Assembly: GCA_965199855.1 (NCBI GenBank)
Contig: OZ241326.1
Location: 384,001 to 448,000 of the forward strand
Source of the DNA: a bacterium
Lineage (GTDB): Bacteria; UBA8248
DNA: 64,000 bases
Direction of reading: 5' to 3'
Each line of letters begins with the position of its first letter. Position 1 is the first letter of the stretch. The notes beneath the pieces were generated by a model. That model had not been told where the DNA came from. It was given only the letters and a program-made list of their open reading frames with translations, and did no database searches. Of this stretch, positions 10,325 to 14,992 are shown in pieces. The position numbers and the translations under genes were made by a program.

Positions 10325-11521
10325 ATGGAATTCACGCTGAGCGAAGAGCAGACCAGAATCCGGCAGATCGCCAGAAAATTCTCCTACGAGGAGCTGGCGC
10401 CGGTCGCTCCCGAGCGGGACAGGATTCAGGACTGGGAGGAGCGGATGCCGTGGGATCTCACGGAGAAGGCGAGCGCCCTGGGCCTCCGGCAGCTGCCCTA
10501 CCCCAGGGAATACGGCGGCATGGGCGCGGACGTGCTTTCGTGCTGTCTGGCGGGGGAGGAGCTCGCCGTGGGCGATCTGGGCTTCGCGGTGAACCTGGAT
10601 CAGACCTGGAAGCTCTCCCACATCTTGGAGAAGGTGGACCCCGGGATACGCGACCCCTGGATGAAGCGCCTGTGCGAGGAGCCGAGGTTCCTGGTGGCGA
10701 TCTCCATGACGGAAGAGGGAGCGGGAACCGACCATCAGGGATATTACGACGATCCCTCCATCGCCCTTTACGCGCGCGCGGAGAAGAAGGGCGGCAAGTG
10801 GATCGTCAACGGGAAGAAGCGCTACATCAGCAACGGCCCCGTGGCCTCGCTGTACGTTCTGGCGGCGCGAACCGACCTCGCCAAAAGCCTGCGCGAGAGC
10901 CTCACAGGCTTCCTCGTTCCCCGGGACGCCCCCGGCGTCTCGATCGGCCGCGTGCACGAGAAAATCGGCCAGCGCCTCTCCATGAACTCGGAGATATTCT
11001 ACGAGAACGTCGAGGTTCCGGAGAGCCACGTGATCCTGGGCGAGGGGAACATGTTCGAGATCAGGGGCAACCTCCTGGCGATGGGAAAGCCCGAAGCCGC
11101 CGCCACGGCCCTGGGCGTCGGACGCGCCGCCTTCGAGAAGGCGCTCGCCTACGGCCGCGAGCGCGTCCAGGGCGGCAGGCCCATCGCGCGGCATCAGGCG
11201 ATAGAGACCATGCTCGCCGACATGGCGATGAGCCTGGACGTCGCGCGCACCTACATCTGGCGCACCGCCTGGGCGGTGGATCACCAGAAGCCCTACGACT
11301 TCACCCAGGGGTGGAAGTGCAAGGTTTTCGCCTCGGAGGCCGCCTTCGAGTGCGCGCGTCTGGGGATGGAGATATTCGGCGGGGCGGGCGTCATGCGGGA
11401 CGCGCCCATGGAGAAATACCTCCGCGACGCCAGCACCTTCCTGCATTCGGACGGCACGAACCAGATATTGAGGCTGAGGACGGCGCAGGCGTACGTGAAC
11501 GGGGCGGCGACGGCGTTCTAG
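10325..11521 (+). CDS. Acyl-CoA dehydrogenase family flavoprotein
   Basis: PREYGGMG, SMTEEGAGTD, NGKKRYISNG, ERVQGGRPI, EIFGGAG, EKYLRDA, HSDGTNQI. Confidence 0.93.
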   Translation: MEFTLSEEQTRIRQIARKFSYEELAPVAPERDRIQDWEERMPWDLTEKASALGLRQLPYPREYGGMGADVLSCCLAGEELAVGDLGFAVNLDQTWKLSHILEKVDPGIRDPWMKRLCEEPRFLVAISMTEEGAGTDHQGYYDDPSIALYARAEKKGGKWIVNGKKRYISNGPVASLYVLAARTDLAKSLRESLTGFLVPRDAPGVSIGRVHEKIGQRLSMNSEIFYENVEVPESHVILGEGNMFEIRGNLLAMGKPEAAATALGVGRAAFEKALAYGRERVQGGRPIARHQAIETMLADMAMSLDVARTYIWRTAWAVDHQKPYDFTQGWKCKVFASEAAFECARLGMEIFGGAGVMRDAPMEKYLRDASTFLHSDGTNQILRLRTAQAYVNGAATAF

Positions 11522-11546
11522 CGGAACGACGGGGAGGCCGGGCGGA

Positions 11547-12101
11547 ATGACGCGCCGGCGGGACGCGATGCGGCAGGGCGGGCTGTTCCGGGAAGGCGGA
11601 GAGGCGCTCCGGGAGGACGCCGCGCGCTGGCTGGCGAGGGTGCGCGCGGAGTTTCGCGTTTTCGTCTCGGAGGCGGGCGTCTCGGAAATCAGGATGCTGA
11701 ACGGCGTGGAGAAGCCCCGGGCGGCGCCGCGCGCGCGGGGAGAATCGTCGCCGCTCATCCGCCGGGCCGTCAGGCAGATAGAAGAATACCTGGAGGGGGC
11801 GCGGACGCGCTTCGACCTCAGGACGGACCTCTCCTCCCTCACGCCGTTCACGGCGAGGGTTTTGCGGGAGACGGAGAAGATTCCCTACGGGCGGACGCGC
11901 TCCTACGGATGGGTGGCGAAGCGGATCGGCGCTCCCAGGGCCGCGCGCGCCGTCGGTCAGGCGCTGCATGGAAATCCCGCGCCGCTCGTCATACCCTGAC
12001 ACCGCGTCATCGCGGGCTCGGGCGAGCTCGGCGGCTTCGCCAGCGGCCTCTCGCTGAAGGCGGCGCTCCTCGCCCACGAGAGGCGCCGCCGGGCCCGATG
12101 A
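11547..12101 (+). CDS. ogt: Methylated-DNA--protein-cysteine methyltransferase, selenocysteine form (TGA 11997-11999)
   Basis: IPYGRTRSY, AARAVGQA, NPAPLVIP-TGA-HRVI...LGGFASG...KAALLAHE. The TGA replaces the Cys of PCHRV and the frame continues to TGA 12099-12101. Confidence 0.88.
12002..12034 (+). promoter_or_regulatory. Candidate bacterial SECIS element
   Basis: cgggctc (12013-12019) pairs with gagctcg (12024-12030) around loop GGGC starting 21 nt after the UGA. Lower stem ccgc/gcgg. Confidence 0.65.
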
Positions 12102-12140
12102 CGCGCGCCCGCGCTTAGCGAACGCGCAGGAGGAGGGAGC

Positions 12141-12722
12141 ATGTCCGAACGCATGAGCGAGTTTATCGGCCAGGTGCGCGAGATCGCGCGCGCGGGAGGC
12201 TCCGAGGGGGAAATCACCGCCCGGGTGGCGGCGCGCCTCGAGCCGATTCTCGAGGAGCCGCGCCTGCTGAGCGAGGAGCAGCTGCTGGTGAAGAGCCGCG
12301 GCTTCACGCTCAACCGGATTCACGTCGAGCCGGACGAGAGCTTCTCCGTCGGCGCAGGGATATGGGACGTGGGTCAGACCACCCCGATTCACGATCACGG
12401 CACCTGGGGGGTGATAGGCATCTACCGCGGGGTGGAGAGCGAGGAGAGCTTCCTGCGCGAGGGCGCGCGCGAGAGCGGCGCCCGCGTCCGACTCACCCCG
12501 AAGGGGAGGCGCCTGGCCGGGCCCGGCGAGGTGTTCGTCTGCTGCTCGCGGGATGAGGACGCGCACCGCGTCAGCTGCGCCTCGGCGGAGCCCGTGGTGG
12601 GAATCCACGTCTATGGCGGGAATCTCGCCAACATCCCGCGCTTCAGGTATGACGAGGAGACCGGCGAGGCGCGGCCGTTTCAGACCGGCTGGGACTACGC
12701 GAGGACTTCGGCCGACTCGTAA
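12141..12722 (+). CDS. Cysteine/3-mercaptopropionate dioxygenase-like cupin
   Basis: WDVGQTTPIHDHGTWG, DAHRV, GIHVYGGN: 3-His cupin pattern of thiol dioxygenases. Confidence 0.8.
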   Translation: MSERMSEFIGQVREIARAGGSEGEITARVAARLEPILEEPRLLSEEQLLVKSRGFTLNRIHVEPDESFSVGAGIWDVGQTTPIHDHGTWGVIGIYRGVESEESFLREGARESGARVRLTPKGRRLAGPGEVFVCCSRDEDAHRVSCASAEPVVGIHVYGGNLANIPRFRYDEETGEARPFQTGWDYARTSADS

Positions 12723-14311: not shown

Positions 14312-14992
14312 ATGAAGGAGTCTTCCCGTCCGGCCGCGCCGGAGGAAGTCGCCCGCGCGTATCGGCGAATCCCCGAATGGACCCGGGACGAGCTCGCCGG
14401 CCTGTCCGCGGCGCAGCTGGACAGAACGGGCGCGGAGGAATGGGCGCGCTGGTCTCCGAGAAGGCAGCTCAGCCACATGGCCTACGTCACGACGCGGTGG
14501 TTCATGGTTCTCTACGGCGCGGCGGGCCTGCCGTGGCGGCCCGTGGACATGAGCCAGTTCGCCTCCTTCATCAACTCGAGGGAGGACGACCGCCGCTTCT
14601 CGGTGGCGCGGTATTCGGATGTGGAGTGGCTGCATCTGCGCTTCGCCGAGGCGTGCGGGGCGGCGGCGGAGCGAATCGAGAACCGGGAGGCGGAGAGCGC
14701 GGAGGCGTCTCTCCTGTTCGTTTTCACGGACGCCTCCGTCGTGGGCGCGACCGGGGAGCGCGCCGTCGATTTGTGGAATCGCTGCGTGAGGCGCCATCCG
14801 GATGGATTCGAGGCCGACCCCGACCACGCCCATGCCTTCCGGCTGACGCCCCTGGCGGCGCTGCGGCACGCGCTCTGGGACGATTTGATTCACCTGCGCT
14901 CCATCCGGCTTCACCGGGAGGCGATGGGCCTCCCGCCCGTCCATCCCGACGCCCCCCCGGGCGGCTACGCCTCCGCCTATCCGGTCTCCTGA
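14312..14992 (+). CDS. DinB/YfiT-like protein
   Basis: WSPRRQLSHMA ... LRHALWDDLIHLRSI His pattern. Paralog of 16441..17130. Confidence 0.65.
   Translation: MKESSRPAAPEEVARAYRRIPEWTRDELAGLSAAQLDRTGAEEWARWSPRRQLSHMAYVTTRWFMVLYGAAGLPWRPVDMSQFASFINSREDDRRFSVARYSDVEWLHLRFAEACGAAAERIENREAESAEASLLFVFTDASVVGATGERAVDLWNRCVRRHPDGFEADPDHAHAFRLTPLAALRHALWDDLIHLRSIRLHREAMGLPPVHPDAPPGGYASAYPVS

Follow-up and report, generated by a model that had tools for sequence, protein, structure and literature searches.

The gene analysed here lies at positions 11547–12101 on the forward strand of the window, the whole 64,000-nucleotide stretch of DNA that was analysed, and its complete coding sequence of 184 residues contains one in-frame TGA. 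It begins with the ATG at 11547, located 9 nt downstream of GGGGAGG (11531–11537, forward strand), which from its sequence is a likely ribosome-binding site, and the start codon belongs to a conserved M-[AT]-R-R N-terminus whose position is identical across 20 of 20 loci. Under translation table 11, the open reading frame (ORF) spans 11547–11999, yielding 150 amino acids and ending at the TGA of 11997–11999, whose context reads N-P-A-P-L-V-I-P-[TGA]-H-R-V-I-A-G-S-G-E-L-G-G-F. In the same frame, NPAPLVIP-TGA is followed by HRVIAGSGELGGF, and the frame past the TGA stays open for 33 codons (HRVIAGSGELGGFASGLSLKAALLAHERRRRAR) until a second TGA is reached at 12099–12101. The first-pass annotation had remarked that the ORF track closes at IP* while the frame continues to 12101; re-reading of the frame and its coordinates confirmed this, as did a PF01035 match that spans the TGA. 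Both this gene and that of the nearest relative (G001) have TGA as their terminal stop; in 18 of 20 relatives it is TAG. Within this gene, two UGA codons stand 100 nt apart and appear to meet opposite fates.

One domain is clearly recognized in the read-through product. Residues 100–179 (11844–12083, forward strand) form the C-terminal alkyltransferase and DNA-binding domain with the active site; they match PF01035 with an E-value of 2.5e-31 and 107.8 bits (cut-off 27), covering model positions 1–80 of 81 across the TGA, and TIGR00589 (ogt) is matched at 100.4 bits against a cut-off of 46.4. An N-terminal ribonuclease-like domain is matched weakly at residues 41–95 (11667–11831, forward strand; PF02870, 17.9 bits, E-value 0.0045, below the cut-off of 21). 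By domain homology, the assignment of 11547–12101 to the Ogt family is unambiguous. The UGA at 11997–11999 (forward strand) falls in the column of the alkyl-accepting Cys and would be read as selenocysteine (Sec) at position 151 (U151), within a P-U-H-R-V motif at 11994–12008 in which Sec is the putative nucleophile. Alignment with a solved OGT places this codon opposite the Cys of PCHRV, in agreement with the first-pass identification of PCHRV as the methyl-accepting motif of Ogt/MGMT.

A single-base difference would suffice to turn TGC or TGT into TGA, and a relative (L058) carries a probable homopolymer error nearby, so a sequencing or assembly error was considered. However, contigs assembled from four runs of four studies (X3, X4, X5 and X12, the last at a depth of only 3.7) cover 11997–11999 and show no other letter there, neither the TGC nor the TGT that the first-pass annotation had named as the mark of an error; the same contigs differ from the window at nine other places. 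Because the TGA recurs in the contigs of four independent runs, and 42 other genomes likewise have TGA at this position, an error is the least credible of the explanations weighed here, with almost no probability left to it. As to habitat, 73–87% of sampled words from positions 11500–12150 of the window occur in sponge or marine metagenome runs of several studies, and contigs of four such runs lie on this segment at 90–99% likeness or more, which suggests a sponge-associated marine lineage. No RNA run was among those matching the segment.

Conservation of the active-site codon among relatives

Related genes were collected by protein search in 41 related genomes and subsequently in all 51 species genomes of the phylum, and the loci were read individually. 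In most of these genomes the orthologue contained one in-frame TGA and no more. An active-site TGA within P-TGA-H-R-[VI] was found at 43 loci, one per genome, corresponding to 43 of the 51 species genomes. The Sec form is present in 23 of 23 genomes of the genus (own genome included), in 12 genomes from other genera of the same family (f1), in one genome of family f2 and in 7 of 7 genomes of family f4. Elsewhere in the phylum, the active site is encoded by TGC in G047, G049 and G053 and by TGT in G026; G048 carries a Cys-type orthologue (L072) split across two frames, G024 and G056 hold more distant Cys matches only, and the protein search gave no match in G042, a genome that is 67% complete. 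In one Sec form (L058, from G028), a G run just past the hairpin loop is one base shorter, which shifts the frame to HRVIGSRGI*. The frame breaks of L058 and L072 reflect either homopolymer assembly errors or decaying genes.

In the same alignment column, 43 Sec sequences carry TGA and 17 Cys sequences carry TGC or TGT. The TGA is retained at the active-site codon down to 40% identity, and it is followed by a conserved tail, HRVIAGSGELGGFASSVSLKxALLxHE. Among the 23 genus genes, the pooled Nei–Gojobori dN/dS was 0.161 over the 32 codons after the TGA and 0.154 over the 100 codons before it, and this equality indicates that the tail is translated. The first-pass annotation had asked whether relatives keep the TGA with a conserved frame behind it, or whether the codon is unique to this genome with relaxed selection downstream; the 43 genomes and the dN/dS values clearly favor the former.

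These data bear directly on the reading in which the TGA is a true stop, leaving either a pseudogene or a 150-residue truncated product without an active site, perhaps an ATL-like damage binder. Such a reading agrees with the ORF called under table 11, which ends at 11999, and with the weak match of ATL proteins (3gva, E-value 3.1e-07). Some termination at a Sec-UGA is, moreover, expected in any selenoprotein gene. Nevertheless, the 32 codons after the TGA are constrained as strongly as those upstream, the PF01035 match runs on past the TGA as far as position 80 of the 81 in the model, and no pseudogene would retain TGA at one codon in 43 genomes with identities as low as 40%; a truncated product would also be deprived of H-R-V and of the C-terminal helix with its conserved Glu. 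We therefore regard a true stop as very improbable. Identification as an ATL protein was likewise rejected, considering the apparently recoded UGA, the selection acting on H-R-V and the full C-terminal helix, and the weakness of the 3gva match.

Selenocysteine machinery and the hairpin behind the UGA

The host genome, a single contig of 3.04 Mb, contains selA, selB, selD and tRNA-Sec, each scoring above its curated cut-off, so that all four components named for checking in the first-pass annotation were recovered. The selA gene (548 bits) adjoins a full-length selB (372 bits), selD scores 344 bits and has one in-frame TGA in GGUGSK, and tRNA-Sec (79.4 bits) bears the anticodon TCA. SelD (L010:1480–2550, reverse strand, outside the window) is itself a selenoprotein, with U39 in the GGUGSK motif. 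Genes of this genome also use TGA as an ordinary stop, the Sec-Ogt gene (12099–12101) among them.

A second alkyltransferase is encoded outside the window at L023:661–1791. It is a full-length Ada that combines a zinc-finger region at its N-terminus and an AraC-type HTH with Cys in the active site (PCHRA), and a Cys paralogue accompanies Sec-Ogt in every genome of the genus. The presence of this Cys-type Ada implies that alkyl transfer in the cell does not depend on Sec-Ogt alone; the Sec protein would be the stand-alone Ogt next to an inducible Ada, an arrangement common among bacteria. The division of labour between Ada and Ogt is established from E. coli.

Within the coding sequence, a predicted bacterial SECIS hairpin occupies 12013–12030 (forward strand), with a stem formed by 12013–12019 and 12024–12030 and a GGGC loop at 12020–12023. 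It comprises 7 bp and a 4-nt loop, has a folding energy of −11.2 kcal/mol and leaves 20 nt between the UGA and the loop. The stem begins 14 bases after the TGA and the first loop G is the 21st base after it, consistent with the G-led loop reported in the first-pass annotation. The bacterial SECIS model of Zhang and Gladyshev (2005), as summarized in the Fig. 2 legend of PMC13188914, calls for a loop of 3–9 nt and a stem of 4–16 bp, and further for a G in the first two loop positions, a UGA–loop distance of 16–37 nt and a minimum free energy of −7.5 kcal/mol or lower; the hairpin in the window agrees with this consensus, as worded in that legend, on all four criteria.

Taken by itself, the hairpin shows no excess over chance in this G+C-rich DNA: its 22-nt fold gave a z-score of −1.5, with 16 of 200 shuffles as good, and the fold of the 74 nt after the TGA gave a z-score of 0.13. 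When the same peptide was resampled synonymously with the codon usage of five window ORFs, six or more Watson–Crick pairs arose at the hairpin place in 9.9% of 20,000 trials. A search of the whole window against Rfam at gathering thresholds yielded 0 matches, to catalogued SECIS or to any other RNA family. The case for a SECIS element consequently rests on comparison with relatives.

In this comparison, Sec and Cys forms could not be told apart by the longest hairpin anywhere in nucleotides 17–38, since chance alone produces GU-rich stems. A position-restricted count was therefore used, considering contiguous Watson–Crick pairs in a stem whose loop starts 21–25 nt from U. At least six pairs were present in 40 of 43 Sec forms, the others having four (two forms) or five (one form), whereas 14 of 15 Cys forms had three or fewer; two further Cys loci (L076 and L079) were dropped from this count by the filter. 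The remaining Cys form, the paralogue L083, has six pairs, which arise by chance. The stem of family f1 (CGGGCUC-GGGC-GAGCUCG) is replaced at the same place by GGGUCCC-GGG-GGGACCU in f4 and by GGCCUCC-GGC-GGAGGCC in f2, giving three unrelated sequences that pair at one position.

Aligned without gaps, 35 sequences of f1 (31 of them distinct) have standard pairs in 217 of 217 pair cells, and compensatory changes occur at two pairs, 18–33 (GC/CG/AU) and 21–30 (CG/UA). The covariation score is 0.283 compared with 0.153 for shuffles, and 0 of 500 shuffles reach it, a count that is not a probability because the f1 sequences are kin. Sliding the partners by 1–3 columns collapses pairing to 26–53%. 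Additionally, pS among the genus genes is 0.359 over codons 1–11 after the UGA and 0.49–0.51 elsewhere, a reduction expected when an RNA element overlies coding sequence. A covarying hairpin at SECIS spacing in Sec forms, lost or broken in Cys forms, is the sequence signature of SelB-dependent recoding.

The same evidence addresses a read-through that would place Cys or Trp at the UGA, whether by means of a suppressor or near-cognate tRNA or because the code is reassigned. Here too, an open frame and purifying selection downstream would be expected, and in most organisms the enzyme works with Cys at its active site. This reading does not, however, accommodate the use of TGA as an ordinary stop in the genome, also at 12099–12101, the covarying hairpin that distinguishes Sec from Cys forms, or the presence of a complete Sec system with a Sec-type SelD. 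Non-Sec read-through is accordingly given as little weight as a true stop.

The first-pass inference of a selenoenzyme is thus supported by the Sec machinery, the kept TGA, the constrained tail, the covarying hairpin and the TGA in independent assemblies. With high confidence, 11547–12101 is predicted to encode a two-domain Ogt/MGMT in which the alkyl-accepting Cys of PCHRV is replaced by Sec, inserted via SelB and the hairpin. In the proposed mechanism, SelB carrying Sec-tRNA(Sec) would bind the hairpin at 12013–12030 as the ribosome reaches the UGA at 11997–11999, where Sec would be placed instead of termination taking place; the second UGA (12099–12101), which has no such hairpin behind it, would act as the stop. 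The protein would presumably act like any Ogt, flipping the damaged base out of DNA and taking the alkyl group irreversibly, as a stoichiometric acceptor, onto a selenolate instead of a thiolate. Sec insertion, repair activity and any kinetic gain from selenium are what we infer from the sequence. Gene callers end the protein at residue 150, without its active site, and thereby underestimate what this lineage can repair.

Sec/Cys exchange, distribution and neighbouring genes

The relationship between Sec and Cys forms was analyzed in an unrooted tree of 51 rows (42 Sec and 9 Cys), in which the direction of change is not fixed. The frameshifted L058 and L072, the paralogues L023, L073, L074, L082 and L083, and the loci L076 and L079 were left out. 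Five state changes are needed on this tree, and at least three are forced by well-supported branches. The Cys form L070 (G053, TGC) is nested in a Sec clade with support of 100/99 and retains the SECIS stem of its relatives L055 and L056 except for one C-A mismatch; it looks like a candidate for recent Sec-to-Cys conversion. Judging from the Cys orthologues of G047, G049, G053 and G026, which are nested among Sec forms, Sec is dispensable in the Ogt family. Natural Sec/Cys pairs among such close relatives (L055 and L056 versus L070) offer good material for biochemical comparison.

To survey the Sec form more widely, a degenerate DNA pattern (N-P-x5-P-TGA-H-R-[VIM]-x4-G-x3-G-[FY]) was scanned against a collection with one genome per species. 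As a check, the pattern matched 40 of 43 Sec loci, none of the Cys loci, and the window once. In the collection it matched at least 120 stretches, and all 120 matches listed give an Ogt-like translation whose active-site residue is U; beyond U, the tail is open for 28–70 codons in 117 of them, runs off the contig end in 2 and extends for 239 codons in L202. Record-title labels for 80 of the at least 120 matches name Bacillota or Clostridia groups (23), Desulfo- or delta-proteobacterial groups (21), Dehalococcoidia (10), Nitrospirota (6), Nitrospinota or Nitrospinaceae (6), Planctomycetota (4) and, once each, Tectomicrobia, Sumerlaeota, Gammaproteobacteria and Proteobacteria, with 6 records labelled plainly as "bacterium". 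Matches listed that share the genus-type sequence and the same neighbours are labelled Nitrospinota, Nitrospinaceae, "bacterium" and, once, Gammaproteobacteria.

A shorter Sec form, with one domain and about 110 amino acids (NPYAPEVPUHRVV..SGRIGGF...FRF), accounts for 29 of the 120 matches listed, including L087, L097 and L099, and among these matches it stems mostly from records labelled Desulfobacterales and allies. Its hairpin lies at the same place and has 4–5 bp (AUCC-GGUC-GGAU).

On the same strand as Sec-Ogt, a gene for a 193-residue protein (12141–12722, forward strand) begins 39 nt past the Sec-Ogt stop. This protein has no Pfam or NCBIfam match; language-model features place it with clusters of cysteine dioxygenase type I and 3-mercaptopropionate dioxygenase (score 0.96, 27 of 30 matches). 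The two genes are neighbours at each of 19 loci from the genus and also elsewhere in the family, in other genera, and the 193-residue gene adjoins the Cys form L070 as well; beside Sec-Ogt in the loci examined from other phyla, it was not observed. Other neighbours of Sec-Ogt encode an acyl-CoA dehydrogenase (upstream), an SDR and a HAD hydrolase, and annotation of the flanking ORFs revealed no supportable functional link to Sec-Ogt. Further along the window, a 226-residue ORF at 14312–14992 (forward strand) shows a weak DinB_2 match (E-value 0.0067, below the cut-off).

The Sec form is therefore spread over at least 120 species-level genomes with eight or more phylum-level labels. That Sec in Ogt represents an old, selectively maintained state rather than the recent accident proposed in 2005, with a real functional gain behind it, seems unlikely to us. 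If the state were indeed old, the persistence of the Sec form would imply such a gain. The first-pass suggestions of faster transfer, another alkyl donor or recycling are speculative. One option would then be a selenolate that works without the activation network, allowing faster repair, repair at lower pH or repair of bulkier adducts. The boldest option would be a removable Se-alkyl adduct, such that the protein turns over instead of reacting once. The thiol-dioxygenase-like gene directly downstream throughout the family would be a candidate partner.

Comparison with known systems

By sequence, the nearest solved relative is the OGT of Mycobacterium tuberculosis (PDB 4bhb, 4wx9 and 4wxc), which aligns over residues 70–181 with an E-value of 9e-27. 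Shared positions include the Tyr of RSYG, the Arg of AARAVG, the Asn of NP, P-C-H-R-V and the Glu of the C-terminal LxxE. The two-domain architecture is probably common to both proteins; the mycobacterial enzyme uses Cys and has no recoding signal, whereas the protein predicted here carries Sec and an N-terminal extension of about 25 residues. The supporting residues correspond to what we take to be Y114, R128, N137 and E172 in human numbering.

An experimental precedent for Sec at this position comes from Haruna et al. (2014, PMC4150793), who engineered human AGT with the exchange C145U. In that study, which names N137, H146 and E172, the variant was made by UAG (amber) suppression with EF-Tu and no SECIS, and it shields E. 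coli without ada and ogt from MNNG. The predicted protein resembles it in its fold and in the catalytic position taken by Sec, and the engineered enzyme shows that a selenolate works there in vivo (PMC4150793). The two also differ at the Asn: N137A kills the Cys form of AGT while the Sec form stays active (PMC4150793), so that Asn137 is dispensable in C145U, whereas the Asn of NP is kept in 43 of 43 natural Sec forms. Since the natural Sec forms keep this Asn, they give no sign of a relaxed activation network. The first-pass statement that Sec forms are known only from surveys holds for natural proteins in the literature searched, but it overlooked this engineered enzyme (PMC4150793). For a natural Sec-Ogt, no biochemistry was found in full-text literature outside subscription journals.

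Among natural proteins, a Sec-containing methylated-DNA-protein-cysteine methyltransferase was first predicted in 2005, as CHY0809 of Carboxydothermus hydrogenoformans; its authors describe a stem-loop after the UGA and consider the protein unique and very recent (PMC1287953). Two sequences of the Sec form have been counted for the Olavius symbiont metagenome (PMC1976440) and one for GOS (PMC2398784), and two reviews tabulate it among prokaryotic selenoprotein families (PF01035/COG0350, with ABB14497.1 as example; PMC9312934, 2022; PMC13188914, 2026). As described in PMC1287953, CHY0809 belongs to the Pfam family of the gene in the window, carries Sec where the alkyl group is accepted and has a stem-loop right after its UGA, and both proteins were predicted by Sec/Cys homology only; the lineage differs.

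The gene at 11547–12101 is thus a well-supported further member of a selenoprotein family known since 2005 rather than a protein of a new kind. The question why selenium should be present in a protein that reacts once dates from that year, and no new question is opened here. Three points go beyond the literature found: how deeply the Sec form is conserved (43 of 51 species), how widely it occurs across bacteria (at least 120 genomes) and the natural Sec/Cys pairs with decaying SECIS elements. Whereas CHY0809 was taken as a one-off in PMC1287953, the Sec form is found here in 43 of 51 species of one phylum and in at least 120 genomes of the motif scan, adding a deep, well-sampled clade to the family.
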